Shown here piece after piece: positions 1 through 62,399 of a DNA stretch of 62,568 nucleotides. The stretch is from Chloroflexota bacterium. Its GTDB lineage: Bacteria > Chloroflexota > UBA6077 > SHYK01. The notes under the pieces are model-generated. The model had not been told where the DNA came from. It saw only the letters and a program-made list of their open reading frames with translations, and made no database searches. The position numbers and the translations under genes were made by a program. The first letter of the stretch is position 1, and each line of letters opens with the position of its first letter. Where the stretch lies: positions 1 through 62,568 of the forward strand of contig JACQOR010000089.1 of assembly GCA_016202435.1 (NCBI GenBank). The letters run 5' to 3'.

Positions 1-924
1 ACCGCCTCCACTACGTGCTCCCTCAGCGGCGTCACCGGCTCCGATAGCGTCTCTTGCTCCGCGGCCTCCTCCAGCTTCGCCAACGCGCTGGTCGGCAACG
101 CGAAGACCGTCACCGCCACCGGCATCACTTTGAGTGGCGCCGCGGCCACCAACTATTCGCTGACCAGTACCACCGCGACGGCCTCCGCCAACATCACGCC
201 GGCTTCGGTCACCGCCTCGGTTACCGCCGCCAACAAGGTCTACGACGGCACGACCGCTGCTACCATCGTCACCTGCAGCCTCTCAGGCATCATCGGGTCG
301 GATAGTGTGACCTGCGCCTCGGCATCGGCGACCTTCGCCGATGCCGAGGTCGGCAGCGACAAGACCGTCACCGCCAGCGGCATCAGCCTGAGTGGCACCG
401 CCGCCGGCAACTACGCTCTCGCCAGCACCACCGCCACGACCTCCGCAAATATCGTCGCCAGCTCAGAACCAGTCATGGGTGTGCTCGTCACGATGCCCGG
501 GCCCATCGCCCCCACCCTCTATACCGTTAGCAGCGCGCAGCCTGGCCAAACGTTCGAGGTCATCGCGGCCCTCCGGAACGACGCGGCGGTTGGATTTACC
601 TATACCCTATCGGTGGAGGCCGAGCCTGGCCAGTCCAGCATCCTGGACACCGATCCAATCACCGGTTTGCAGCTCGCCATCTATCGGTGCTCACCCAGCA
701 CCACGCTCTGCGACGTGCTCGTTTACTCGGGCCCAGCGATCGTTGTCAATCAACCCATGGGTGGCCCGCAAGCGGTCGGCACCGGGGGCGCTCAGCAGGG
801 CCTGGGCCCTGGCCAATTCGACTATGTGTCGATGCGGTTCACGCTTCCTGCCAGCGCAGGCAACGAGTTCCAGGGAGCGACCAGCGTGCTCAAGTTCGTT
901 TGGACCGCCGCCGAGGCCCTCTAA
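1..924 (+). CDS. 5'-truncated secreted/surface protein: YDG-type repeats plus C-terminal TasA/CalY-like domain
   Basis: Frame 1 is open from base 1. There is an 86-aa repeat (TCSLSG at nt 13 and 271) with 'NKVYDGTTAA' and 'GNAKTVTATGITLSG..A.NY' motifs. The C-terminus 'AQPGQTFEV...LPASAGNEFQGATSVLKFVWTA' resembles the TasA/camelysin fold. Confidence 0.7.
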   Translation, partial: TASTTCSLSGVTGSDSVSCSAASSSFANALVGNAKTVTATGITLSGAAATNYSLTSTTATASANITPASVTASVTAANKVYDGTTAATIVTCSLSGIIGSDSVTCASASATFADAEVGSDKTVTASGISLSGTAAGNYALASTTATTSANIVASSEPVMGVLVTMPGPIAPTLYTVSSAQPGQTFEVIAALRNDAAVGFTYTLSVEAEPGQSSILDTDPITGLQLAIYRCSPSTTLCDVLVYSGPAIVVNQPMGGPQAVGTGGAQQGLGPGQFDYVSMRFTLPASAGNEFQGATSVLKFVWTAAEAL

Positions 925-1080: not shown

Positions 1081-2160
1081 ATGAATTTGCGCATTCCGGG
1101 CCCGACCCCTCTACCCCCGCAGGTGCGCGAGGCGCTGCAAGGGCAGATGATCAACCATCGGGGCCGGGAGTTCGGCCAGATGGTTCGCGCCATCGCCGAG
1201 CAACTGAAGCACTTTTTCCAGACCGAGAACGACCTCGTGATCCTGACTGGCTCGGGTACCGGCGCGATGGAAGCCGCCATAGTGAACACGTGCTCTTCCG
1301 GAGAAAAAGTCTTGGCGGTCTCCATCGGCAACTTTGGCGACCGCTTCGCCACCATTGCCCGTGCCTTCGGGTTGGACGTCACCAAGCTCGACTTTCCGGG
1401 CGGCCACGCTGCCGAACCGCAGGCTGTCGCCGATGCACTGGATCGCAACCCTGACATCACAACGGTGCTGATTACCCACAACGAAACGTCCACCGGTGTC
1501 ACGAACCCCCTGGCCGACCTCGCGCGTGTCGTGAAGGAGCGGAACAAGCTGCTCGTTGTCGATGGAATAAGCTCGGTAGCCTCCATAGATCTCAAGACCG
1601 ATGAATGGGGCTGCGACGTGGTTCTAAGCGGTTCCCAAAAGGGTTGGATGGTACCGCCCGGCCTGGCATTCGCTTCAATAAGCCCCTTCGCGTGGGAACG
1701 CCACGCCGCAGCCAGGCTACCGCGCGTCTACTGGGACTTTGCCGAGCACAAGAAGTATCTGGATCGTGGCGAAACGCCCTGGACGCCGGCCGTCAGCATT
1801 TTCTATGCCTTACGAGTGGCGCTGGACATGATGGAGCAAGAAGGCCGTGAAGAGATCTTTGCCCGTCACGAGCGGGTCGCACAGCGCTGCCGTGACCGCG
1901 CCGTCGCGGCCGGCATGAGTCTCTTCGCGGACCAGCGCTACGCTTCCAACACCGTCACTGCCTTCTACACTCCAGAAGGAATAGACTCGCGCTCGATCGC
2001 CACGGAGCTGGAAGATGAGTTTGACACCGTCGTAGCTCTCGGACAGGCTCAGTGGACCAACACCTCGTTGCGCATCGGCCACCTGGGATGGGTCAATGAA
2101 TCAGACATCGACCGGACGATGGATGCGCTAGAGAAGGTCCTCAGCCGGACCCAAGCATAG
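1081..2160 (+). CDS. Class V PLP aminotransferase (serine-pyruvate/alanine-glyoxylate type; likely SerC function next to serA)
   Basis: IPGPTP, GSGTGAMEA, HNETSTG, VDGISS and SGSQKG (PLP Lys) motifs; GGAGG RBS. Confidence 0.9.
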   Translation: MNLRIPGPTPLPPQVREALQGQMINHRGREFGQMVRAIAEQLKHFFQTENDLVILTGSGTGAMEAAIVNTCSSGEKVLAVSIGNFGDRFATIARAFGLDVTKLDFPGGHAAEPQAVADALDRNPDITTVLITHNETSTGVTNPLADLARVVKERNKLLVVDGISSVASIDLKTDEWGCDVVLSGSQKGWMVPPGLAFASISPFAWERHAAARLPRVYWDFAEHKKYLDRGETPWTPAVSIFYALRVALDMMEQEGREEIFARHERVAQRCRDRAVAAGMSLFADQRYASNTVTAFYTPEGIDSRSIATELEDEFDTVVALGQAQWTNTSLRIGHLGWVNESDIDRTMDALEKVLSRTQA

Positions 2161-12432: not shown

Positions 12433-13845
12433 TTGACCACAACAGGATTGGTGGAGCAGCAAATCGCGACCAAGATGCGAGCCGCAGGCATTGCGGACGC
12501 GGGCATCACGGCGTTTCTCGCTGCCGTCCGCAAGGTCGCTGAGGGAGAGCGTGGCTGGCTGTCAGAAACAGCTATTGATCCGGTTGCTTCGCTCCCCCGG
12601 CTTGATGACGTACCGGAAGATGCTTTCACCGGCGCGAGCCTGCTCGAGCAGTTGGCGATCGTAAAGCTCAATGGTGGCCTCGGCACGAGCATGGGCCTCG
12701 AGACCGCCAAGTCGCTCCTCCCCGTGAAGGGGAAAGATTCATTCTTGGACTTCATCGCCCGCCAGGTCTTGCATTTGCGTGCCAGAACGGCTGGGCCCGA
12801 ACCTGCCTTCTACCTCATGGACAGCTTCAACACACAGGCCGATACACTTGCATATCTGCAGAGGTACCCGGAACTCGGCGTTGGCGAACCCCTCGATTTC
12901 TTGCAGAACAGGGTCCCTAAGCTCGAGGCGGATACGCTGGCGCCGGTCTCCTGGCCTCCCGATCCGGACCTCGAGTGGTGTCCGCCTGGACACGGTGACC
13001 TCTATCCCGCCTTGCTTGGCTCGGGCCTGCTCGATCTTCTGCTGCAGCGAGGCCTCAGGTTCATGTTCATATCCAACGCCGATAACCTCGGTGCAACCGT
13101 CGACCTCAGTCTCCTGCGGTACTTCGCCGACCAGGAGCTTTCGTTCTTGATGGAGGTCGCCGAGCGCACCCCCATGGATCGAAAGGGTGGCCATTTGGCG
13201 CACCGCCGAACCACCGGCCGCCTCCTGCTCCGCGAATCCGCGCAGTGCCCCTCCGGCGATCAGGAGTCCTTCCAAGACATACAACGCCATCGCTTTTTCA
13301 ACACTAACAATCTCTGGATCCGCCTTGATCACTTGCGGCGCGAACTCGGCCGCCACGGCGGAGCACTGCCGTTACCATTGATCACCAATGCCAGGGCAGT
13401 TGATCCGCGCGATCCCAGCTCACCACAAGTCCTCCAGCTGGAATCGGCCGTCGGCGCAGCCATCGAGTGTTTTGATGCGAGTGGCGCCCTCCTGGTACCA
13501 CGCACCCGCTTCGCGCCGGTGAAGACAACCTCTGACTTGCTGGTGCTACGGTCGGACGCGTGCCGGGTAACACCGGACCACCGGCTCATTCTGGACGAGC
13601 GACGGCGGGGCGAGCCCCCCCTTGTAGAACTCGATCCCCGGCACTACCAGCTCTTACCTGACTTCGATGAGTTCTTCCCGGACGGCCCGCCTTCGCTCGT
13701 CCTCTGCCGATCGCTCCGGGTCACGGGGCCAGTGCAGTTCGCCGCTGGGGTCGTCTGCGAGGGAGATGTCGAGTTTGCGAACGCGTCAACCCGGGCGAAG
13801 CTGGTAGCTTCCGGGACTTACCGGAACACACGCGTCCCGATGTAG
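12433..13845 (+). CDS. UTP--glucose-1-phosphate uridylyltransferase, eukaryote-like UDPGP family
   Basis: KLNGGLGTSMG, PPGHGD, SNADNLGA, KGG, FNTNNLW, RFAPVKTT. Confidence 0.92.
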   Translation: MTTTGLVEQQIATKMRAAGIADAGITAFLAAVRKVAEGERGWLSETAIDPVASLPRLDDVPEDAFTGASLLEQLAIVKLNGGLGTSMGLETAKSLLPVKGKDSFLDFIARQVLHLRARTAGPEPAFYLMDSFNTQADTLAYLQRYPELGVGEPLDFLQNRVPKLEADTLAPVSWPPDPDLEWCPPGHGDLYPALLGSGLLDLLLQRGLRFMFISNADNLGATVDLSLLRYFADQELSFLMEVAERTPMDRKGGHLAHRRTTGRLLLRESAQCPSGDQESFQDIQRHRFFNTNNLWIRLDHLRRELGRHGGALPLPLITNARAVDPRDPSSPQVLQLESAVGAAIECFDASGALLVPRTRFAPVKTTSDLLVLRSDACRVTPDHRLILDERRRGEPPLVELDPRHYQLLPDFDEFFPDGPPSLVLCRSLRVTGPVQFAAGVVCEGDVEFANASTRAKLVASGTYRNTRVPM

Positions 13846-44914: not shown

Positions 44915-46657
44915 TCAGTTCTTATCCAGATCGTGCCACCAATCCTGGTCGGTTCCCCACTTATAGACGCCGGTCGTTCCTTTGGACACCACCCAGGGGA
45001 TCGGCTCGTAGTAGAACGGCCAGAACGCCACCTCCCCCATGATCTTGTCCAGGAACTGCCTGCCGAGGGCCCTCATATCGGTGTCCAGCACCGCCATCTC
45101 GGTCCGCTCGATCAACCGGTCCATCTCCGGTTCGTTGTACCGGCCCCGGTTGTTGCCTCCGGTCCAGTTGTTGGCTTCCGTCGCAACCTGCGACCCATGG
45201 AACCGTCGGTTCCCGATCTTCGGCCCCGCCGTGATGTTAGATGCTCCCGTCTTCAACGAGATGAACTTGTTGTCGTTCTGCTCGGAGGCGGTGAGCACGT
45301 GGATCTGCAGGTTGATCCCCACCGCCTTCAGGTCCTGCTGGATGATCGAGTTCAGCTTCTCCCAGTCCGTACCCCGCCGGATCTGCACCTGGTAGTCAAA
45401 CCGCTCCCCGCTGGGCTGGTGCACCCGCACCCCGTCCGGGCCCATCATCCAGCCCGCTTGCTCCAGCAGCTGCACCGCCTTCCGCTGGTCGTACGGGTAG
45501 ATGTAGGGGAAGTCCGGCGCCTCGATCCAGTCCTTCAGCAGCATGTAGGGCTCATCGGTGGGAGCGTCGTTGACCCGCGCCGCCTTGAGCTGCCCCAGCG
45601 TCATGATGTTGGCCAGCTCCTCCCGATTGATCGCGATCAGCCCGGCCTGCCGCACTAACGGATTGACGAAATTGATCGGACGCGCATAGGTCAGGTCGCG
45701 CTGCAGCTCGTACTGGTTGGTCCCGTCCCGCTGACCGATGATCACCTCGTGCCCGGTCCCCTCTCGCTGGAACCGGTTGCGGAGTTCTTCGGCCAGCTCC
45801 ATCCCGATTGCCGGCGGCAGCAGCACGTCCGCCGCTCCGGCCAGGAACGTCGCCGTCATCGTATTGGGGTCGAAGACCGTCCTCAGGATGATCCGGTGGA
45901 CCTTCGCCGGCCCCATGTAGTATTCGTCAAATCGCCGGAACTCGACGTGCGACGCCGGCTCGAAGTTCACCAGCTTGAACGGCCCCGCCCCCACGTACTT
46001 GCTCGAGTTCAAATCGGAGAACTGCAGCTGGCTCGGGTCCTGCAGGTAGAGCGGCTCCCACAGGTGCTTCGGGAGCGGCGTCAGCCCCTCCCCGTTCCGA
46101 CCCAGGATCGAGAGCCGATTCCAGTGGGTCGTGAACGTGTACGGGTCCTGCACCGTGATGTTCGAGATGTACTGGATTCCGCCCCCCAGCGTTTGCTGCT
46201 TCACCGCAGGATCGTTCTTGATCTTGACCGTGAAGGCGATGTCTTCGGCGGTGAGCGGCGTGCCGTCGTGCCACTTGGCGCTGGGCACGATCTTCCAGGT
46301 CATGTCCATCGTGCCGTCCGGCTTGATGACCCACTTCCCGTTCTGCTGCGTCGGGATCTCGGCCGCCAGGCGGCGCTCCTGAGGTCCGCCCGGAATGCGG
46401 TTCGGCGCCGTCAACGGCTCCTCGGAGAACCCGGTCCAGTGCCGCCACGCCGCGCTCCCCTGCGCGCCGCTGATCACCTCGTCGAAGGTGGCAATCTCTC
46501 GCGCAATGAGGATGGTGACGATCTTCTCTTTCTCCGGCTCTCCGGAAATCCCCGGGGCCCCCGGAGTCGTCGGGGCTTGGCCCGGAGCGCACGCTGTCAG
46601 CACCAGAAACCCGATCATCCCTATCGACATCGACAGACGCAAATGCTTCCGCTGCAT
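44915..46657 (-). CDS. ABC family-5 solute-binding lipoprotein, paralog 1
   Basis: Lipobox LTAC, 'A.WHDG.PLTAEDI.FT', 'VGAGPFKL', 'RQAGLIAINR'. Confidence 0.92.
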   Translation of the reverse strand: MQRKHLRLSMSIGMIGFLVLTACAPGQAPTTPGAPGISGEPEKEKIVTILIAREIATFDEVISGAQGSAAWRHWTGFSEEPLTAPNRIPGGPQERRLAAEIPTQQNGKWVIKPDGTMDMTWKIVPSAKWHDGTPLTAEDIAFTVKIKNDPAVKQQTLGGGIQYISNITVQDPYTFTTHWNRLSILGRNGEGLTPLPKHLWEPLYLQDPSQLQFSDLNSSKYVGAGPFKLVNFEPASHVEFRRFDEYYMGPAKVHRIILRTVFDPNTMTATFLAGAADVLLPPAIGMELAEELRNRFQREGTGHEVIIGQRDGTNQYELQRDLTYARPINFVNPLVRQAGLIAINREELANIMTLGQLKAARVNDAPTDEPYMLLKDWIEAPDFPYIYPYDQRKAVQLLEQAGWMMGPDGVRVHQPSGERFDYQVQIRRGTDWEKLNSIIQQDLKAVGINLQIHVLTASEQNDNKFISLKTGASNITAGPKIGNRRFHGSQVATEANNWTGGNNRGRYNEPEMDRLIERTEMAVLDTDMRALGRQFLDKIMGEVAFWPFYYEPIPWVVSKGTTGVYKWGTDQDWWHDLDKN

Positions 46658-46840
46658 CCTTTACCTCTTTCTGTGGAATCACCCCCCGGTTCGGAATGAC
46701 CCGGGGATGACCTTCCTATGTCAGATGTCCCGCATGGTCTCTAGTGAAATCCGATGTTGTCTGCACCCTCCTCATTCAGTCGCGCAGTTCACCGACCGGA
46801 CGGCCCGGACCACTGGCGTGGATGATGGCGACCGGCTGAT

Positions 46841-46880
46841 TCAGCCCTAATCTTACCGCCCCTCGCCAGGGGAATGTCCA
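46841..46880 (-). promoter_or_regulatory. Cassette-type promoter (TAAGAT -10) for SBP paralog 1
   Basis: GGCGAGGGGCGG-TAAGAT, similar to the UbiD upstream GGCGAGGGGG-TAAGAT. Confidence 0.5.
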
Positions 46881-46982
46881 GGTTTCCTACAGACTTCTTA
46901 AGGGACGCGGGCGCCCGGCGGCCAGATAGGCGGTCAGCCCGGTCCGGCCCGGGACGTTCCCGGCGGATTTCCTGCCTGAGAT

Positions 46983-47058
46983 TGGCACCCCCGGGCGGAT
47001 TCGAACCGCCGACCAACGGATTAGAAGTCCGATGCTCTGTCCACTGAGCTACGGGGGC
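46983..47058 (-). tRNA. tRNA-Arg (anticodon TCT)
   Basis: 76-nt cloverleaf GCCCCCG...CGGGGGT-G-CCA, anticodon loop CTTCTAA, GGTTCGAATCC T-arm. Confidence 0.97.
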
Positions 47059-49667: not shown

Positions 49668-50420
49668 ATGCCGCTCTACGGACCCCTCATGGGCGAGACG
49701 ACAGGGATCCACGGCCACAATGCGGACCTGATCGACGCGTACTTAGCACGGCCTCTCGGCGATGGCCCCTACCCGGGAGTACTCCTCCTACACCACATGC
49801 CGGGCTGGGATGAGTGGAGCATCGAGGCGACCCGATACTTCGCCCACCACGGCTATATCGCGATCTGCCCGAACCTGCACCATCGAGCCGGCCCTGGCAC
49901 CGCAGATGAGATGGCAGCGGCGACCCGAGAGCGAGGCGGCGTACCCGACGAACAGTGCATGGGCGACGCGGCCGGCGCTGTTGCCTATCTGCGCGCCATG
50001 CCGTCAAACAACGGCAAGGTCGGCGTGATCGGATTCTGCTCAGGTGGGCGCCAGGCCTACCTCGCTGCCTGCGAGCTCCACGGTGTTGACGCCGCCGTCG
50101 ACTGTTGGGGCGGCCGCGTCTACGTTCCAGAGGAAGAGCGCCAGGGGCGAGGGCAGCCGCTGGATCTCACTCCCAAAATGCACGTCCCGCTGCTCGGAAT
50201 CTTCGGGAACGACGACACCAACCCGTCGCCCGAACACGTTGACCGCATCGAGGCAGCTTTGAAGGACGCCGGCAAGCCCTATGAGTTTCACCGCTATGAC
50301 GGGGCCGGCCATGGATTCTTTGCGACCGGCCGCCCGGGCTACCGCCCGGTGCAGGCCACCGACGGCTGGAAAAAGGTCTTCTCCTGGTTCGAGACGTACC
50401 TCCAGCCAGCCAGAACGTAA
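49668..50420 (+). CDS. Dienelactone hydrolase family protein
   Basis: GFCSGG nucleophile, FG.DD.NP, YDGAGHGF; GGAGG RBS. Confidence 0.92.
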   Translation: MPLYGPLMGETTGIHGHNADLIDAYLARPLGDGPYPGVLLLHHMPGWDEWSIEATRYFAHHGYIAICPNLHHRAGPGTADEMAAATRERGGVPDEQCMGDAAGAVAYLRAMPSNNGKVGVIGFCSGGRQAYLAACELHGVDAAVDCWGGRVYVPEEERQGRGQPLDLTPKMHVPLLGIFGNDDTNPSPEHVDRIEAALKDAGKPYEFHRYDGAGHGFFATGRPGYRPVQATDGWKKVFSWFETYLQPART

Positions 50421-50442
50421 GAAGGGAAGGGAGCTCGAAGCT

Positions 50443-50754
50443 ATGTGCACGTGGATCCTTCACCGCGCAGATATCCGAGGCAGTGGCAAGGGACAGGCCG
50501 GCTGGTTCCCTATTCAGCAGGCGAACGTCGCTTTCGACCACCCCGCCGATGCGCCCCTCGACCACGCGGTCCTCATTGACTTCGTGAACGAGGCGATGGG
50601 CCCCAGCGCGAGGGTCGCCGTCGAGCTGAGCGCCACCTCGGCACGGGCGTTGGTCGAGGCGATTCAGAGCGCGCTCGAGGACGGCGACAAGCAGCACGTC
50701 GCCAACCATGAGGATGTCGTGACGTTGTCCGTCCATTCGACGTACTTGAACTGA
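50443..50754 (+). CDS. Small conserved protein resembling DUF6295
   Basis: 'MCT.I...GSGKG..GWF', 'DHP..APLDHA..IDF', 'RVAVELS..SAR.L'. Confidence 0.7.
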   Translation: MCTWILHRADIRGSGKGQAGWFPIQQANVAFDHPADAPLDHAVLIDFVNEAMGPSARVAVELSATSARALVEAIQSALEDGDKQHVANHEDVVTLSVHSTYLN

Positions 50755-51085
50755 CGGCCGTAGTGTCTCCGCGGGAAGTTATGGATCCGTGGCTCTCGGG
50801 GGCCCGAGGTCCTCTCCTTCACACATCGTGGCCGACAAGGGCGGGCTCCGGATTGGGAGCGAGCCTTCCTACTTCCGACTCGATTTGGCCCGCAGACTTC
50901 GGCAGCATTCCCTGGAAGTTTAGGGCACCCCTGCCGGGGAAACCCCGCAAAAAGTCAGGGTTCCGCTGAGGGATTCCCCTATTAACTTTTCCGGTGCCCA
51001 GAAGGTCTCTGGCCAACGCAACCGACCAGATTGCTGCCATGGCCGGGACAAATGAGTATTCGTCTTGCCACGCAAAGGGGGATCA

Positions 51086-51406
51086 ATGGGAATCCATGCC
51101 GTCAATCAGCGCGATGTCGAGGCGGAGAAGACTAACCGGGGTTATACGAAGTTCTTGCACATGCAGGCGGGCGACCCACAGATCATGATTCGTATCTGGG
51201 GCACCGAGTCCGGGCACGGGGTCAACAGCCACCCGTTCAACCAGATGTTCTATGTGCTCGAGGGTGAGATAGAGATGGGGGACGCGATCTACACCTCTGG
51301 GACGTGCATCTTCATGCCGAAAGACACCGACTACGGCCCCATCAAGGTACCCAAGGCGGCCAAAATCCTCCGCTACGCAGAGCACGACACCAGTCGGGAT
51401 GCGTAG
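51086..51406 (+). CDS. Cupin-domain protein
   Basis: 'HGVNSHPFNQMFYVLEGEI', 'GTCIFMPKDTDYGP'. Confidence 0.8.
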   Translation: MGIHAVNQRDVEAEKTNRGYTKFLHMQAGDPQIMIRIWGTESGHGVNSHPFNQMFYVLEGEIEMGDAIYTSGTCIFMPKDTDYGPIKVPKAAKILRYAEHDTSRDA

Positions 51407-54746: not shown

Positions 54747-56465
54747 TTAATTCTTATCCAGCTCCCACCACCACCCCTGATTGCCTCCGGCCGGGAAGAC
54801 TCCGGTCACTCCCTTCACCATCATCCAGGGGATGGGCTCATAGTAGAACGGCCAGAATGCCACCTCCCCCATGATCCGGTCCAGGAACTGCCTGCCGAGA
54901 TCCCGGAGCTCGGTATCGAGGACCGCCTTCTCGGTGGCCTCGATCAGCCGGTCCATGGCTGGGTCGTTGTAGCGACCTCGGTTGTTGCCGCCGGTCCAGT
55001 TGTTCGCCTCGGTCGCGATGTTGGAGGAGTGGAACCGCCGGGCGCCGATCTTGGGTCCGGCGGTCACGTTCGTCGCTCCGGTCTTGGTTGAGACGAACTT
55101 GTTGTCGTTCTCCTCGGTAGCGGTGAACACATGAAGCTGCAGGTTGATCCCAACTGCCTTGAGGTCCTGCTGAATGATCGAGTTCTGTTTCAGGAAGGCG
55201 GTGCCGGGGCGGATCTGTACCTCGTAGTCGAATCGCTCCCCGCTCGGCTGGTGCACCCGAACCCCGTCCGGACCGGGCATCCACCCCGCCTGCTCCAGCA
55301 GCTGTACCGCTTTTCGCGGGTCATACGGGTAAATGTAGGGGAAATCCGGCGCCTCGATCCAGTCCTTCAGCAGCTTGTAGTAGTCATCCGTGGGATGGTC
55401 GTTGACCCTCGCCGCCTTGCCCTGCCCGAGCGTCATTTCCGCCGCCAGCTCCTCGCGGTTGATGGCGATGAGCCCGGCCTGCCGCACCAGCGGGTTGACG
55501 AAATTGACCGGACGGGCGTACGTCAGGTCCCGCTGGAGCTCATACTGGTTGGCGCCAGTCCGCTGTCCCACCATCACCTGAGCCCCCCGCCCGCCGAGCT
55601 CCGCAGCCTCCTCCATACCGATGGCAGGCGGAAGCAGCACGTCGGCGGCGCCGGCCAGCAGATTGGCGGCCATTGCGTTGGCATCGTAGATCGTCTTCAA
55701 GAAGACGCGGTGGACCTTGGCCGGCCCCTTGTAGTACTCGTCGAACCGCCGAAACTCGATGTACTGGGCCGGCTCGTAGGACGCGAGCTTGAACGGCCCG
55801 GCCCCGACGTAGTCGCGCGAGTTCAGCGTAGAGTACTGGAGTTGGCTCGGGTCCTCCTTGTAGACCGGTTCCCACAGGTGCTTCGGCAGCGGATCAAGGC
55901 CGGTGCCATTCCGGCCCAGGGTCGAGGGCTGCTTCCAGTGGGTCGTAAACGTGTACGGGTCCAGTACGGTGACGTCGGAGATGTACTGAATCCCGCCCCC
56001 GAGAGTTTGCCGCTTCACGGCGGGGTCATTCCGCAGCCTGACCGTGAACGCGATGTCCTCGGCGGTGACCGGAGTGCCATCGTGCCACCGGGCGTTTGGC
56101 ACGATCTTCCAGGTCATGTCCATCGTGCCGTCTGGACGAATCACCCACTTCCCGTTTTGTTGAGTGGGAATCTCAGCCGCCAGGCGTAGCTCCTCAGGTC
56201 CACCCGGAACGCGATTGGCTACCGTCAGCGGCTCATGAGCAAACTCGACCCAGTGCCGCCAGGCAGCATTGCCCTGAGCGCCGCTGATGACCTCGTCAAA
56301 AGTGGTCATCTCGCGATTCATGACGACCGTGACGGTCTTCTCTTTCTCAGGAGCCGCCACTCTGCCGGTAGTCTCCCCGATTTGGGCCGGCTGGCCCGGC
56401 GCACACGCTGTCAAGACGACGAGTCCGAGCGTCAAGACCGATAGGATCGAGTGTTTCCGCTGCAT
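54747..56465 (-). CDS. ABC family-5 solute-binding lipoprotein, paralog 2
   Basis: Lipobox LTAC; closely similar to paralog 1 throughout. Confidence 0.92.
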   Translation of the reverse strand: MQRKHSILSVLTLGLVVLTACAPGQPAQIGETTGRVAAPEKEKTVTVVMNREMTTFDEVISGAQGNAAWRHWVEFAHEPLTVANRVPGGPEELRLAAEIPTQQNGKWVIRPDGTMDMTWKIVPNARWHDGTPVTAEDIAFTVRLRNDPAVKRQTLGGGIQYISDVTVLDPYTFTTHWKQPSTLGRNGTGLDPLPKHLWEPVYKEDPSQLQYSTLNSRDYVGAGPFKLASYEPAQYIEFRRFDEYYKGPAKVHRVFLKTIYDANAMAANLLAGAADVLLPPAIGMEEAAELGGRGAQVMVGQRTGANQYELQRDLTYARPVNFVNPLVRQAGLIAINREELAAEMTLGQGKAARVNDHPTDDYYKLLKDWIEAPDFPYIYPYDPRKAVQLLEQAGWMPGPDGVRVHQPSGERFDYEVQIRPGTAFLKQNSIIQQDLKAVGINLQLHVFTATEENDNKFVSTKTGATNVTAGPKIGARRFHSSNIATEANNWTGGNNRGRYNDPAMDRLIEATEKAVLDTELRDLGRQFLDRIMGEVAFWPFYYEPIPWMMVKGVTGVFPAGGNQGWWWELDKN

Positions 56466-56529
56466 TGCAGCCTCCCTGGGGCAGTTCTGCGGTCGCACGG
56501 CTATCCGCAAAGCTCATGTGCCCGTTTTT

Positions 56530-56575
56530 CAGGCACTCATCTTACTCCGTCTGCTTTACCAAACGCTCAAACGAG
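56530..56575 (-). promoter_or_regulatory. Cassette-type promoter for SBP paralog 2
   Basis: GGAG-TAAGAT-GAGTGCCTG. Confidence 0.55.
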
Positions 56576-56612
56576 AATGAGAGCCCGGAGGCGATCCCTC
56601 CGGGCCCTCATT
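56576..56612 (-). terminator. Hairpin downstream of SBP paralog 3
   Basis: AATGA..GCCCGGAGG / CCTCCGGGC..TCATT. Confidence 0.7.
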
Positions 56613-56631: not shown

Positions 56632-58428
56632 TCAGGTCTTGTCCCAGTACCAGATGTTGCCGGTCGAGTAGCCCGCCTCGCCCGGGCCCGTCACCCCCTT
56701 CAGCATCAGGATCGGCAAGGGCTCCCAGTAGAACGGGTGGTAGACCACGAGCGAGCCCGCGTAGTCGATATACCCTTTGTACGCTGCCTTCAGCTGCTGC
56801 TCGTCGACTGTGACCTCGATCTTCTCGATGAGGCGATCCGTCTCCGGGCTATACCAGCGGCCCCGGTTGTTCCCACCGATCCAGTTGTTCGCCTCGGACG
56901 CCAGCCCCGAAGAGTGCAATCGCCGGCCCTTGGCTCCGGAGGTGATCATAGCCGCGCCCGGCTTCTGACCAATGAACCGCTGATCCAGCTGCTCTGTCTG
57001 CGTGAGGACGTGCACGTCCAAATCCACCCCGACCGCCTTCCAGTACTGCTGGATGATCACCCCCACCTTGAAGGGCCCGCTGCCCTGGCGGACCAGCGCC
57101 TGGTACGTGAACCGCTCTTCGCCCGCGGCCGGCAGGTCGTAGGGAAAACTGCCGGTCGGACTACTGGCTGTCGGTCCACTGGCTGGATGCACCAGGATGC
57201 CATCAGGGCCCCTGGTCCAGCCGGCGGACGTCAGCAGCTCCTGGGCCTTGCGTGGATCGTAGGGGTATCTCCAGGGGTAGGTCGGCGACTCGACGTACTC
57301 CTTGATGTACGGGTAATTCTCGTCGTCGTTCGGAGACCAGAAGCTCGTCGCGATCTTTGAGTATCCCTGGGTCATGAGCTGCGTCAGCTCCTGTCGATCG
57401 ATGGCCTGGAGGAGCGCCTGCCGCACCGGTTGCTGGGTCATCCCGTAGACCGGTTTGGCAAACATCGGGTCCACCATCAGCTCGAAATTGAGCGCGTCCA
57501 GCCGATCCCCCATCACCAGCCGGTGTCCGCTTCCCTCCTTCGTCCAGCGCTCCTGCAGCTCCAGGGCCAGCTCCAGCTCGATCCCCTGAGGCAGCACCAC
57601 GTCGACCGCTTCCGCCAGGAGGTTGGCCGCCATCGTGTTCGCGTCGGGAACGATCCGCATGGTGACGCGGTCCAGTTTGGCCGGCCCCTTGTGGTACTCG
57701 TCGAAGCGATCGAAGGTCATGTGCGACCCCACGAGCCATTCGGTCAGCTTGAACGGCCCGGCGCCGATGAACTCGTCGAAGAAGTACCGCAGCTCCCCCA
57801 TGGTGGACTTGTTGGGGCCCAGGTACGCCGACTCCAGGATGTGCTTGGGCAGAGGATTGAGTCCGCCGCCCGCGGCGCCCAGGTTGGTCGTGGTTTTCCA
57901 GTGGGTCACGAACGTGTAGGGGTCCGGCGCTTCGACGCTCGTCACGTACTCTACGCCGCTACCCTTGAGACCCTGTTTCGCGACCTCTTTGTCCGTCCGT
58001 ACCGTGTAGGCGAACACGAAGTCCGCGCTCGTGACCGGAGCGCCGTCATGCCACTTGGCGTTCCGCACCAGCTTCCAGGTCATGTCCATCCTGCCGTCCG
58101 GGTATACCGCCCAGGTCCCCTTGGTCGTGCTGGGCAGCTCAGCCGCCAGCCGCAGGTCGCGGACGCCGTTGATGACCGGCCCGGTCAGGCCCTCATCCGC
58201 GATGGGCTTGCCGTGCAGATAGGCGGCGCCGCCGGCCGCTCCGCTGACGACGTCATCGAAACTGGCCTGATCCCGCTGCTGGACGAAGATGAGGGTTTTT
58301 TTTGCAGCCGGTGCCCCGGCGGCAGCTTGTTCCGCGCGCCCAGCCGCGGGCTGACTTGGCGCGCACGCACTCACAAGCAACAATCCGATCATCATCACAA
58401 CTGACAAACTCGTGTACTTTCGCTGCAT
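56632..58428 (-). CDS. ABC family-5 solute-binding lipoprotein, paralog 3
   Basis: Lipobox VSAC; WHDGAPVTSADF, IGAGPFKL, RQALLQAIDR. Confidence 0.92.
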   Translation of the reverse strand: MQRKYTSLSVVMMIGLLLVSACAPSQPAAGRAEQAAAGAPAAKKTLIFVQQRDQASFDDVVSGAAGGAAYLHGKPIADEGLTGPVINGVRDLRLAAELPSTTKGTWAVYPDGRMDMTWKLVRNAKWHDGAPVTSADFVFAYTVRTDKEVAKQGLKGSGVEYVTSVEAPDPYTFVTHWKTTTNLGAAGGGLNPLPKHILESAYLGPNKSTMGELRYFFDEFIGAGPFKLTEWLVGSHMTFDRFDEYHKGPAKLDRVTMRIVPDANTMAANLLAEAVDVVLPQGIELELALELQERWTKEGSGHRLVMGDRLDALNFELMVDPMFAKPVYGMTQQPVRQALLQAIDRQELTQLMTQGYSKIATSFWSPNDDENYPYIKEYVESPTYPWRYPYDPRKAQELLTSAGWTRGPDGILVHPASGPTASSPTGSFPYDLPAAGEERFTYQALVRQGSGPFKVGVIIQQYWKAVGVDLDVHVLTQTEQLDQRFIGQKPGAAMITSGAKGRRLHSSGLASEANNWIGGNNRGRWYSPETDRLIEKIEVTVDEQQLKAAYKGYIDYAGSLVVYHPFYWEPLPILMLKGVTGPGEAGYSTGNIWYWDKT

Positions 58429-58585
58429 CGCTACTCCCTTCTGGAAGAAGGACACCGGGTCGAGACGACCCGCGAATGGCGAAACTCCGACGTTCAGCTG
58501 GTCACTGATCGAAAACGGCTCCCCTGGCTCCTCCTTGCTCGGGCGTTAGCGCCCGCCTCCACGAGTATGGTCAGGAACTCGACAG
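58429..58585 (-). promoter_or_regulatory. Structured 5' leader of SBP3 (candidate cis-regulatory RNA)
   Basis: Homologous to 62143-62320, with paired substitutions in stems and an SD-sequestering hairpin. Confidence 0.55.
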
Positions 58586-58620
58586 GCGACCATCTTACTC
58601 CGACCGGAAGGCTGCTTCAA
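58583..58620 (-). promoter_or_regulatory. Cassette-type promoter for SBP paralog 3
   Basis: TTGAAG, 17 nt, TAAGAT-GGTCGCCTG. Confidence 0.65.
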
Positions 58621-58625
58621 TAAGT

Positions 58626-58658
58626 GAGGGCCCGATGGAGCGTATCCATCGGGCCCTC
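58626..58658 (-). terminator. Hairpin downstream of the UbiD gene
   Basis: GAGGGCCCGATGGA-5 nt-TCCATCGGGCCCTC. Confidence 0.72.
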
Positions 58659-58687: not shown

Positions 58688-60169
58688 CTACATCGTGTCG
58701 CCGCGCGCCACGGCGGCCGCTCCTCGCCCGTCGCCGCGCTGGGGCTCCTCCGTAAGATACTCGCCCCACTTGTCCATGATGCGCTTGCGGTAGGCCGGCG
58801 AGACGTCGTTCACCGGATTGAACTGCTCCTTCCAGGCGAACGGCTTGCAAGCGTCGATCAGCACGCATCCCACCGTGAGGCCATGCTCCAGCGGGATCTC
58901 CTCCTGCTCCGGCGTAAACCTCGGGCTGACCGCCGACGCCCAGTTGTTTCGGTAGATGTGAACCGACTCCTGCGGGTCCGTCCGGGAGGTGATCGCCCAG
59001 AAGACGTCTTTGGGGTCGTGGATGTCGACATCCTCGTCGACGATGACCAGGTACTTGGGCGGGCGGTTCCTGAGGCCGGTCATCACAAAGTCGGCGACCC
59101 GCTTGGCGTGCCCGGCGTACATCTGGTGAATTCCCACCACTAGGAACGGGCCGGCGTTGCTGATGCCGACGACGTCGTGGAAACCGGCATCCCTGATCAT
59201 CTTCATCAGCTGGACTTCGTTGCCCGGAAGGTATGAGCCGCGCCCGACCACGCGCTTGTAGGGTGGCTCTCCGCAGATGATCGGATCGTTCCGGTAGTAG
59301 ATGGTATCGATCCGGACCACCGGAGCCGGCACGCTATTGGCGTAGTGTCCCCCCCCTTCTCCGAACATTCCCTCGTTCCGCATCGGCTCATGATCCGGAT
59401 GCATGATGTAGCCTTCGAGCACCATCTCGGAGGACGCGGGGATCGGGATACCGGTCTTGCCTTTGACGACTTGCACCGGCGCGCCTCGCAGGAAACCGCA
59501 CATGTCCAGCTCTGAGACACCCCAGTTCTCGTTCTCCGCGGTCGCGACGAGCAGAGAGGGCTCCTGCCCGAGGGAGAGCACTGTGGGGCAGTCGAGGCCC
59601 TGCTCGAAGTAGTGGTCGCGGATCACCTGCCCGTGATGACCGTGCGCGGTATGCAGTCCCGTGTGGTTCCGGTCGTACACCTGGCTGCGGTACGATCCGA
59701 TGTTCACCCACCCCTCGTAGGGATCCAGCTCGAAACAGGCGCTGGACGTGCCAATGTAAGGACCGGCGTCCAGCTCGTGCCACAGCGGAGCGGGGAACTT
59801 GTACAGATCAACGTCATCCCCTTCCACGACGTTTTCGAGGATCGGGCCCGACGTGACCCATTCGGGCGGAACCGGCTTCTTCTCTTCCAGCCGCTTCGAG
59901 AGGAACGCCTCGAGATCCTTGCCTTCGAGGTCGAGCGGGATATTCGCTGCGAGTCGGCCTCGCTTCTTGGAGGAAAGGACGTTCGTGGCGACACGATGGC
60001 CCTTCGGGTACCCGGGGATCTCGTCAAACAGAAACAGCTTCGCGTTTTGCTTCTCGCCGTTGATCGCGTAGATCCCGCCGATCTCATCCAGAGCAGCACC
60101 ATTGATTTGTTCGAACTCCCCGAGTTCCTGAGCCTTGGCGATGAACTCCCGCAGATCGTCGAACTTCAT
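58688..60169 (-). CDS. UbiD-family (prFMN-dependent) decarboxylase
   Basis: MKFDDLREFI, NIGSYR (Arg), EGMFGE (E-x4-E), 'VIVDEDVD', 'V.WAI.SR.DP', 'IDACKP'. Confidence 0.93.
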   Translation of the reverse strand: MKFDDLREFIAKAQELGEFEQINGAALDEIGGIYAINGEKQNAKLFLFDEIPGYPKGHRVATNVLSSKKRGRLAANIPLDLEGKDLEAFLSKRLEEKKPVPPEWVTSGPILENVVEGDDVDLYKFPAPLWHELDAGPYIGTSSACFELDPYEGWVNIGSYRSQVYDRNHTGLHTAHGHHGQVIRDHYFEQGLDCPTVLSLGQEPSLLVATAENENWGVSELDMCGFLRGAPVQVVKGKTGIPIPASSEMVLEGYIMHPDHEPMRNEGMFGEGGGHYANSVPAPVVRIDTIYYRNDPIICGEPPYKRVVGRGSYLPGNEVQLMKMIRDAGFHDVVGISNAGPFLVVGIHQMYAGHAKRVADFVMTGLRNRPPKYLVIVDEDVDIHDPKDVFWAITSRTDPQESVHIYRNNWASAVSPRFTPEQEEIPLEHGLTVGCVLIDACKPFAWKEQFNPVNDVSPAYRKRIMDKWGEYLTEEPQRGDGRGAAAVARGDTM

Positions 60170-60258: not shown

Positions 60259-60300
60259 CAGGCACCCATCTTACCCCCTCGCCTCAGGAAATTGCACACA
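60259..60300 (-). promoter_or_regulatory. Cassette-type promoter for the UbiD gene
   Basis: GGCGAGGGGG-TAAGAT-GGGTGCCTG. Confidence 0.55.
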
Positions 60301-60306
60301 ATCAAA

Positions 60307-60338
60307 GGAGCCCGATGGAGAGATCTCCATCGGGCTCC
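60307..60338 (-). terminator. Hairpin downstream of SBP paralog 4
   Basis: GGAGCCCGATGGAG-4 nt-CTCCATCGGGCTCC followed by TTTGATTG on the minus strand. Confidence 0.75.
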
Positions 60339-60357: not shown

Positions 60358-62142
60358 TTAGTTCTTGTCCCACTCCCAGACGTTATTGGTCGCCGTCGAT
60401 CCCGAGAAGACGTTGGGCCCGGTCACCCCCTTCAGCATCAAGACCGGCAGGGGCTCCCAGTAGAACGGATGGTAGACCACCAGTGACCACGCGTGGTCGA
60501 TATACGCCTTGTACGCCGCCTTCAGCTCCTGCTCATTGATCGTGACCTCGATCTTCTCAATGAGGGCGTCCGTCGTTGGGCTGTACCAGCGGCCTCGGTT
60601 GTTGCCACCGATCCAGTTGTTCGCCTCGGTCGCCAGACCGGAGGAGTGCAGCCGACGGCCCTTGGCCCCCGAGGTGACCATCGCCGCGCCCGACTTCCGG
60701 CCGACGAACGCCTGGTCCAGCTGTTCGGACTGGGTGAGGACGTGCACGTCCAGGTCCACCCCAACCGTCTTCCAGTACTGCTGAATGATCACTCCCGTCT
60801 TCAGCGGCCCACTGCCCTGGCGAACCAGAGCCTGATAGTTGAACCGCTCTTCCGCAGCGCTCGGTAGATCGTAGGGGAAGTTGCTCGTCGGTCCGCTGGC
60901 CTGGTGTACCAGGATCCCATCGGCCCCCTTGGTCCAGCCCGCCGACGTCAGCAGCTCCTGGGCCTTGCGCGGATCGTAGGGGTATCTCCAGGGATACGTA
61001 GGTGACGTGACGTAGTCCTTGATGTAGGGCCAGGCCTCATTGTCGGAAGGCCATAGGCTCGTCGCGACCTGCGAATACCCCTGGGTCATGATCTGCATGA
61101 GTTCTTCGCGATCGATAGCCTGCAGCAGGGCCTGCCGCACCGGTTGCTGGGTCATTCCGTAGATCGGTCGGGCGAACAGCGGGTCCACCATGAGCTCGAA
61201 ATTGAGCGCGTCCCCGCGACTCCCGACGATCAGCTGGTGCCCGGTCCCTTCCCGCTGCCAGCGTTCTTTGAGCTCGAGCGCCAGCTCCAGCTCGATGCCC
61301 TGAGGCAGCGCCGCGTCCACTGCCTCCGCCAGGAGATTGGCCGCCATCGTGTTGGCATCAGGAACGATCCGCAGAGTGAGTCGGTCCAGCTTGGCCGGCC
61401 CCTTGTAGTACTCGTCGAAGCGGTCGAACGTCATGTGGGAGCCCACCTGCCAGTCCACCAGCTTGAACGGGCCCGTCCCGACGAACTCGTCGAAGAAATA
61501 ACGAAGCTCGCCCATGGTGGCTTTATTGGGACCCAAATAGGCCGGCTCCAGGATGTGCTTCGGCAGCGGGTGAAGCCCCTCCCCGTAAGCCGGGATGAAG
61601 GTGGTCGTGGGGAAGTGGGCTACGAACGTGTACGGGTCCAGCGTATCGATGCGGGTGATGCGATCCGCTCCGCCGTCCGTATTGCGCTGTTTGGCGACCT
61701 CCTTGTCGCTTCGCACCATCCAGGCAAACTGGAAATCCGCGCTGGTGACGGGCGTGCCGTCATGCCACTTGGCGTTGCGCACGATCTTCCAGGTCAGCTC
61801 CATGCTGCCGTCCGGCTTGACGACCCAGGTGCCTTTCGTGTCACTCGGAAACTCGGCCGCCAGGCGCAGGTCCCGCCCGCGTTCCCCCAACGACATGCTG
61901 AGGCCATCCCACACGACGTTTACGCCGTGCCGATAGGCGGAACCACCGGAGGCTCCGCTCACCACGTCGTCGAAACTGGCCTGGTCCCGCTGCATGACCG
62001 CGATGAGGGTCTTCTTGGCGGCAGGTTGCCCGGGGCCGGCTGCTTCCGAGGGCCTGCTCACGCTCGGGCTCGGCGCGCACGCGCTCACCACCAGGAATCC
62101 GATCATCATCACAGCTGACAGACTCCTGTGCTTTCGCTGCAT
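60358..62142 (-). CDS. ABC family-5 solute-binding lipoprotein, paralog 4
   Basis: Lipobox VSAC; closely similar to paralog 3. Confidence 0.92.
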   Translation of the reverse strand: MQRKHRSLSAVMMIGFLVVSACAPSPSVSRPSEAAGPGQPAAKKTLIAVMQRDQASFDDVVSGASGGSAYRHGVNVVWDGLSMSLGERGRDLRLAAEFPSDTKGTWVVKPDGSMELTWKIVRNAKWHDGTPVTSADFQFAWMVRSDKEVAKQRNTDGGADRITRIDTLDPYTFVAHFPTTTFIPAYGEGLHPLPKHILEPAYLGPNKATMGELRYFFDEFVGTGPFKLVDWQVGSHMTFDRFDEYYKGPAKLDRLTLRIVPDANTMAANLLAEAVDAALPQGIELELALELKERWQREGTGHQLIVGSRGDALNFELMVDPLFARPIYGMTQQPVRQALLQAIDREELMQIMTQGYSQVATSLWPSDNEAWPYIKDYVTSPTYPWRYPYDPRKAQELLTSAGWTKGADGILVHQASGPTSNFPYDLPSAAEERFNYQALVRQGSGPLKTGVIIQQYWKTVGVDLDVHVLTQSEQLDQAFVGRKSGAAMVTSGAKGRRLHSSGLATEANNWIGGNNRGRWYSPTTDALIEKIEVTINEQELKAAYKAYIDHAWSLVVYHPFYWEPLPVLMLKGVTGPNVFSGSTATNNVWEWDKN

Positions 62143-62320
62143 CGCTATCTCCTTCTCGGGGAAGGGACACCGGGCCTAAACGACCCGCGAATTGCGGCAC
62201 TCCGGCGCTTCGAGCTGACCACTCCCGGAAAAGCGAATCTCCTCATTCCCTCCTTACTCGGCGGGTGGCGTCTCCCAGCTCAGCGCTCCGTCCGACGCCA
62301 CGCCGAGGGCACATCGACAG
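62143..62320 (-). promoter_or_regulatory. Structured 5' leader of SBP4 (candidate cis-regulatory RNA)
   Basis: Homologous to the SBP3 leader; long 5' hairpin closed by CTCG/CGAG, then TAAGGAGG. Confidence 0.55.
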
Positions 62321-62360
62321 GGGCCCATCATACTTCGTTTGGCTGGCAAATGCTCGCAGA
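62318..62360 (-). promoter_or_regulatory. Cassette-type promoter for SBP paralog 4
   Basis: GAAG-TATGAT-GGGCCCCTG. Confidence 0.5.
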
Positions 62361-62363
62361 AGT

Positions 62364-62399
62364 GAGAAGCCCGATGGTGAGTTCGCCATCGGGCTTCTC
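62364..62399 (-). terminator. Hairpin downstream of SBP paralog 5
   Basis: GAGAAGCCCGATGG / CCATCGGGCTTCTC. Confidence 0.72.

Follow-up and report, generated by a model that had tools for sequence, protein, structure and literature searches.

The add adenine riboswitch of Vibrio vulnificus is a translational ON riboswitch in which the 3' strand of helix P1 can instead hide the SD. RNA thermometers of the ROSE and fourU types place pyrimidines opposite the SD in a short hairpin. Leaders of the oppA/dppA type are classical targets of sRNAs (GcvB), and CsrA acts on leaders with multiple GGA motifs. Leader elements acting on mRNA stability include the STAB-SD of cry3A (Agaisse and Lereclus 1996, a study cited by PMC7509114 and PMC2358910) and the polypurine 5' mRNA stabilisers of PMC2358910. 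Here, a leader with likenesses to each of these systems was analyzed in a window of 62,568 nucleotides, the whole stretch of DNA under study, from contig JACQOR010000089.1 of the Chloroflexota bacterium assembly GCA_016202435.1.

The leader belongs to SBP3, a gene for an SBP_bac_5 lipoprotein within a run of minus-strand genes called by ORF and Pfam analysis (Table 1). Every SBP in the window is an SBP_bac_5 protein with a lipoprotein signal peptide (MQRK...TACAP), and the ATG of SBP3 was confirmed by its signal peptide, MQRK...SACAP, together with the Pfam SBP_bac_5 match. The five SBP_bac_5 lipoprotein paralogs are orphans, permease and ATPase genes not being adjacent, and two amidase genes and the gene for a UbiD decarboxylase are interleaved with them. 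The closest protein homologs come from Chloroflexota MAGs. In related contigs such SBP genes stand beside isochorismatase, NicX, xanthine-dehydrogenase-type, LigAB and CoA-transferase genes, a pairing that suggests uptake for aromatic or N-heterocycle catabolism. Elsewhere in the window, a plus-strand DUF6295 gene (50281-50754) is followed by about 300 nt (50760-51060) that received no protein-family assignment and then by a weak cupin-like ORF (51065-51406).

Table 1. Positions of genes and leader features; coordinates are those of the window, except for the last three rows, which refer to other contigs.
Feature	Position	Strand	Detail
SBP5	>62430	-	SBP gene truncated by the window end
SBP4	60358-62142	-	SBP_bac_5
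UbiD-family decarboxylase	58688-60169	-	
SBP3	56632-58428	-	SBP_bac_5; ATG 58428-58426
SBP2	54747-56465	-	SBP_bac_5
Two amidases		-	part of the same gene run as SBP2-SBP5
SBP1	44915-46657	-	more remote than the rest of the cluster
Terminator-like hairpin 3' of UbiD gene	58626..58657	-	GAGGGCCCGAUGGA-N-UCCAUCGGGCCCUC
Promoter-like site of SBP3	58583..58620	-	TTGAAG 58620-58615, 17-nt spacer, TAAGAT 58597-58592, then GG-N3-CCUG
Promoter-like motif sites	56530-56544, 58583-58597, 60259-60273, 62318-62332	-	
SBP3 leader	58429-58587	-	
Upstream SD-like box, SBP3	58528..58536	-	AAGGAGGAG; AAGGAGG 58536-58530; no start codon after it; 5' strand of proposed P1 (58536-58529)
Stem (a), SBP3	58491..58517	-	CGUU..CAG/CUG..AACG, around island AGUGACCA 58506-58499
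Stem (a), SBP4	62235-62206	-	CGCUU..GAG/CUC..AAGCG
Conserved core, SBP3	58456..58488	-	GGAGU 58488-58484, GCCAUUCG, hairpin CGGGUCG-UCU-CGACCCG 58472-58456
Anti-SD and SD-occluding hairpin, SBP3	58437..58452	-	anti-SD UCCUUCUU 58452-58445; CCUUCU/AGAAGG, 58451-58446 with 58442-58437, loop UCC
SD, SBP3	58438-58434	-	GGGAG
SBP4 leader	62143..62321	-	AAGGAGGGA 62255-62247; hairpin CGGGUC-GUUUA-GGCCCG 62187-62171; CCUUC 62165-62161 and GAAGG 62155-62151, loop CCCGA; -10-like TATGAT 62332-62327
SBP1 leader	46658..46850	-	more distant; GAGGAGGG 46773-46766; hairpin CGGGUC-AUUCC-GAACCG 46703-46687; no anti-SD
L168 leader	1745-1867		upstream of the SBP gene following the UbiD gene, as in the window
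L169 leader	739-863		ERZ27254836
L005 leader (L005b)	about 13760-13836		directly before another SBP ATG

A terminator-like hairpin behind the UbiD gene and a promoter-like motif before the leader indicate that SBP3 is its own transcription unit. Transcription is predicted from the letters of the motif to start at about 58587-58584, and its position thus gives SBP3 a predicted 5' UTR of about 155-160 nt; that of SBP4 is predicted at about 180 nt. The range 58429-58585, which the first-pass annotation had singled out as a candidate riboswitch-like leader, is exactly the stretch from the SBP3 ATG to the predicted transcription start. Each gene of the cluster has such a pair, a terminator-like hairpin and a promoter-like motif, in front of it. 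The motif TAnnATG-N4-YCTG has four matches in the window against 0.25 expected, and these sites precede SBP2, SBP3, UbiD and SBP4. It recurs in related contigs, once in L167 (2030-2044) and twice in L171 (420-434 and 2051-2065), and TA(A/T/C)NATGG-N3-YCTGTC(G/A) precedes SBP and UbiD genes across three assemblies. The conserved CCTGTCGA directly downstream of the -10 may represent an operator, or else conservation of the initially transcribed sequence. SBP2, the product of which shares 76% identity with SBP1, likewise has this -10 motif, and its leader of only about 70 nt (56466-56544, minus strand) is without the core described below, so the leader element is patchy among close paralogs.

Further repeats were observed around these transcription signals. 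The terminator-like hairpins after SBP5, SBP4 and UbiD have identical arms, CCCGATGG/CCATCGGG, and differing loops; hairpins with these arms occur at three sites of the cluster (58631-58653, 60311-60334 and 62370-62393) where none is expected, and one resembling them lies at about 56575-56610. Such shared-arm hairpins are either part of a duplicated terminator-promoter-gene cassette or a REP-like element. A tRNA-Arg (TCT) gene (46983-47058, minus strand) lies directly upstream of the promoter and leader region of SBP1. The sequence CCTTAAGAA...CCTGGAC is found upstream of the SBP1 leader (about 46870-46905, minus strand) and of the L005b leader (L005 13700-13725), in two genomes, and could be a regulator site or a chance match.

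Six homologous leaders were found in three assemblies, namely those of SBP1, SBP3 and SBP4 in the window, L168 and L005 in GCA_038913475.1, and L169 in ERZ27254836. They represent about three independent lineages and six of the 14 related SBP genes with readable upstream DNA; the element is found neither before the other eight nor before the neighbouring enzyme genes. The L005 copy was matched at E = 0.003 by a covariance model trained without it. Wider searches of genome and metagenome collections returned SBPs of at most 36% identity and no credible model match (best E = 0.28-0.35), and a covariance-model scan of about 160 distant SBP loci gave none either. Viral contigs yielded two chance pattern matches and no SBP relatives, and a search based on UbiD synteny led to L171 and L172, both of which are devoid of SBP genes.

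All six leaders contain AAUY-N(1-2)-CGGGUC-N5-GRMCYG, ending 23-28 nt before the ATG. In four of them the 24-nt block GGAGUGCCGCAAUYCGCGGGUCGU is almost invariant; between SBP4 and L168 it is identical at 23 of 24 positions, whereas identity is about 53% for the SBPs, 0.54 at third codon positions and 63% for the syntenic UbiD proteins. Upstream and within the core, conserved islands follow each other in the same order and with similar spacing: GGAGG, AGUGACCA and YCGAWG, then GGAGU, AAUYCG and CGGGUCGU. The core motif CGGGTCRTNNNRNNCYG has three matches in the window, each in an SBP leader, against 0.14 expected. Selection on the core and restriction of the element to SBP leaders of this lineage together indicate a real cis element; the leader element is real and previously undescribed.

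These data bear on whether the likeness of the leaders could be nothing more than residual similarity after a recent gene duplication, devoid of function. For the core this is refuted by its near-identity across genomes and by the exclusive occurrence of the motif in SBP leaders, which leaves duplication a highly improbable account of the element as a whole. Duplication is, for all that, the best account of stem (a) and of most of the distal similarity. Between SBP3 and SBP4, whose proteins are 75% identical, leader identity is 0.74 and third-codon-position identity 0.64; outside the core, leader identity falls within the range of coding DNA. The first-pass annotation had compared these two leaders and read covariation in stem (a). 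The stem is present in both, on the minus strand, but the covariation did not withstand resampling. RNAalifold applied to the pair returned 41 base pairs with six compensatory ones and a consensus energy z-score of -0.72, and column-shuffled alignments gave on average 4.8 compensatory pairs (p = 0.34), which places the observed six at chance level.

The other leaders do not extend this architecture. No helix exists in the register of stem (a) in L168, L169 or SBP1; the island AGUGACCA that it encloses is itself conserved in sequence. Consensus folding of four or five leaders kept no helix beyond the core hairpin, the fold energies of multi-leader alignments are marginal (z about -1.6 to -1.8), and single leaders fold no more stably than shuffled sequences (z from -1.4 to +0.6), so that an unusually stable fold was ruled out. 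The enclosed multi-stem domain proposed earlier is therefore not demonstrated, since stem (a) is confined to SBP3 and SBP4, the one consensus hairpin lacks double-sided covariation and three of the six leaders lack the anti-SD.

That hairpin was found as the first-pass annotation had drawn it in SBP3 and SBP4 (Table 1). Across the six leaders its 5' arm does not vary, nor does the RU that comes next, and the 3' arm varies among GACCCG, GGCCCG, AACCUG and GAACCG. Paired cells amount to 85.7%, with three wobble-compatible single changes and two disruptions; double-sided covariation is absent in these six leaders, a set of about three independent lineages that gives no power for statistics of the R-scape type. 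On DNA the same letters form a 6-5-6 inverted repeat, CGGGTC-N5-GACCCG, which could be the target of a transcription factor acting on the SBP genes as a repressor or road-block. Its fixed half-site spacing of 5 bp in six of six copies, the conservation of sequence rather than pairing, and its regulon-like occurrence before several paralogous genes would all suit an operator. The repeat lies, however, 115-135 bp downstream of the promoter-like motif, and neither the neighbouring genes, at 47-62 kb, nor the related loci contain a regulator domain that would identify a nearby transcription factor; on these two grounds an operator is disfavoured and we regard it as quite unlikely. The invariance of the left half and its flank with a drifting right half is also unlike a symmetric dimer site, and of the five changes in the right arm, three are compatible with wobble pairing on the mRNA strand alone, a weak point given that they are also plain transitions. 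The active form of the element is presumably RNA rather than DNA. Two other identities for the hairpin were rejected: a small conserved ORF across the core has no start codon, the likeness of its peptides merely reflecting the invariant CGGGUC, and an attenuator or intrinsic terminator would have a U tract, whereas the hairpin is followed by GUGUCCUUCUUCC in SBP3 and AUGUCCGUAAAG in L168, and the terminator scan was empty there.

Downstream of the core, a CCUUCU/AGAAGG hairpin overlaps the SD of SBP3 and is part of the MFE structure. This hairpin, which had been noted in both SBP3 and SBP4, is indeed found in each (CCUUC/GAAGG in SBP4), and an independent copy in L169 (CCUUU/AAAGG) differs by a compensatory C-G to U-A change, bringing the leaders with an SD-hiding hairpin to three of six. 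L168, SBP1 and L005b have no anti-SD and all three retain the core. Further upstream, the SBP3 leader contains AAGGAGG, which had been remarked on for having no start codon behind it; the next 20 nt are indeed free of AUG, GUG and UUG. Its GGAGG is kept in five of the six leaders (SBP3, SBP4, L168, L169 and SBP1), about 100-115 nt before the ATG. In SBP4, a uORF of 33 codons (62145-62246, minus strand) starts 2 nt after AAGGAGGGA and ends with a UAG 2 nt before the ATG. It is probably fortuitous, given a frameshift in SBP3 and its absence elsewhere, and a uORF behind AAGGAGG was rejected, L168, L169 and SBP1 having no consistent start.

In the three leaders with an anti-SD, this strand can pair instead with the upstream box in a helix, P1. 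Read by hand, P1 comprises 8 bp in SBP3 (AAGGAGGA:UCCUUCUU), 7 bp in SBP4 (GGAGGGA:UCCCUUC) and 9 bp in L169 (GAGGAGGGC:GCCUUUCUU); its register matches the alignment in SBP3 and L169, and in SBP4 it needs a shift of 1 nt relative to MAFFT, owing to an extra linker C. At two positions flanking the SD-like core, A-U pairs are replaced by G-C and by C-G. Flanking positions are paired in 9 of 12 cases (binomial p about 0.012, for a register picked after viewing the sequences). Constrained folding of SBP3, SBP4 and L169 gave the OFF state as MFE and placed the ON state 0.5-4.3 kcal/mol above it. In L169 no upstream sequence pairs better with the anti-SD than the conserved GGAGG box; in SBP3 and SBP4, purine-rich partners elsewhere in the leader pair with it equally well or better. 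Both pairings are thus feasible in these leaders. The mutually exclusive ON and OFF pairings proposed at first are supported by their recurrence in L169 with compensatory changes; L168, SBP1 and L005b, which lack an anti-SD, have no such switch.

The reading we consider best, with a probability of roughly 0.45, is that these sequences are a lineage-specific family of 5' UTR leaders with a cis-acting RNA element that sets the translation of SBP mRNAs through the choice between SD occlusion and a long-range helix. By default the lowest-energy fold would pair CCUUCU, just past the conserved hairpin, with the first half of the SD, which would be partly hidden. In the alternative fold, CCUUCU would pair with AAGGAGG about 85 nt upstream, closing a domain of about 85 nt that contains the core and freeing the SD. 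The core, GGAGU-N6-AAUYCG plus the CGGGUC-N5-GACCCG hairpin, whose spacing to the ATG is fixed, would be the likely recognition site tipping the balance, and a small molecule, an RNA-binding protein, an sRNA or the 30S subunit are candidate effectors acting there. The switching itself is what we infer from the two competing pairings.

If the effector were a metabolite, AAGGAGG and CCUUC would flank an aptamer of roughly 85 nt, whose ligand stabilises P1, frees the SD and turns SBP translation on. The layout fits translational ON switches, with a P1 that competes with an SD-sequestering helix and two nearly isoenergetic states, as in the add riboswitch, where the 3' strand of P1 alternatively pairs with the SD and the two states are similar in energy. 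The ordered islands described above and the nature of the genes, which encode substrate-uptake proteins adjoining catabolic enzymes, would suit such a switch as well. So would the outcome of Rfam searches, which agrees with the first-pass annotation in that no known family was recognised: tRNA was the sole family reaching the gathering thresholds of Rfam 15 in the whole window, and the SBP3, SBP4, SBP1, L168 and L169 leaders, searched at E values up to 10, gave scattered chance matches to miRNA, snoRNA and CRISPR families, none common to the homologs. Unlike the add riboswitch, however, these leaders present no defined aptamer fold, covarying helices or ligand; a covarying multi-stem architecture cannot be derived from them, and stem (a) is not conserved beyond two copies. 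A riboswitch fits poorly because the element precedes SBP paralogs that are 45-75% identical and probably bind different substrates, because many sister genes do not have it, and because half of the homologs are without the expression platform. We consider a metabolite-binding riboswitch unlikely and the label premature for these leaders. The more specific proposal of a new riboswitch class from an uncultured Chloroflexota lineage, in which a GGAGG:CCUUC-closed aptamer would turn on translation of the orphan lipoproteins in response to a shared metabolite or signal connected with aromatic or amide catabolism, is likewise doubtful.

L168 and SBP1 keep GGAGG without having an anti-SD for it to compete for, which requires a different or further role for GGAGG. 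A STAB-SD-like stabiliser explains this conservation: the leader would be a module for mRNA stability without sensing, in which GGAGG binds the 30S subunit without initiation and blocks 5'-to-3' decay, and the hairpin is a 5' stabiliser that may become the 5' end by cleavage in the conserved single-stranded AAUU before it. As in the STAB-SD, a strong SD-like GGAGG stands about 100 nt before the start codon, has none behind it and is conserved independently of initiation; it also fits the anti-SD better than the real SDs do. Besides cry3A STAB-SD, the polypurine stabilisers of PMC2358910 are a precedent. In all six leaders the distance from hairpin to ATG is fixed at 23-28 nt, and GGAG occurs 2.7 times as often as expected across the leaders (25 versus 9.2); conserved copies stand near -130, -105, -58 and -10. 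Against these points, GGAGG is not at the predicted 5' end, as it would be in a STAB-SD, but about 50 nt from it; in three copies it is complementary to a downstream anti-SD, and the leaders have a separate hairpin core. A stabiliser also fails to explain why the hairpin's 5' arm and its flank do not vary, or why P1 and the SD hairpin show compensatory changes. It is, in our assessment, somewhat unlikely.

As an observation in its own right, SBP3, SBP4 and L168 have six to seven GGAG per leader against 2-3 expected from first-order Markov resampling. Such repeats call to mind RNAs that a GGA-recognising protein, or 30S subunits, would occupy at several sites, and a protein- or sRNA-binding site common to an uptake regulon is an alternative to the switch of SD occlusion and long-range helix. 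The leaders share with the SBP_bac_5 leaders targeted by GcvB or CsrA the gene family and a conserved single-stranded patch near the SD across paralogs, and with CsrA-type leaders the repeated GGA(G) motifs, one of them at the SD. They differ from both in that a C/A-rich enhancer of the GcvB type is absent and no sRNA or CsrA gene occurs in the DNA examined. An sRNA partner encoded nearby was rejected, a complementary copy of the core not being found in the window. The likeness to ROSE and fourU thermometers consists in a short hairpin that places pyrimidines on the SD. The leader hairpin is, by contrast, a perfect helix of 5-6 bp without the characteristic bulges, Rfam gave no ROSE or fourU matches, and the leaders possess a conserved upstream core that is not part of a thermometer.

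The genomes concerned contain many orphan SBP_bac_5 paralogs beside catabolic genes of the amidase, UbiD, isochorismatase and xanthine-dehydrogenase types. If merely a stabiliser or a protein site, the element would be an ordinary leader motif of local interest. If regulatory, it would define a post-transcriptional regulon of uptake proteins in poorly known, uncultured Chloroflexota, controlled by a compact SD-occlusion switch, and, if a ligand exists, it would offer a handle on the substrates that these transporters import.
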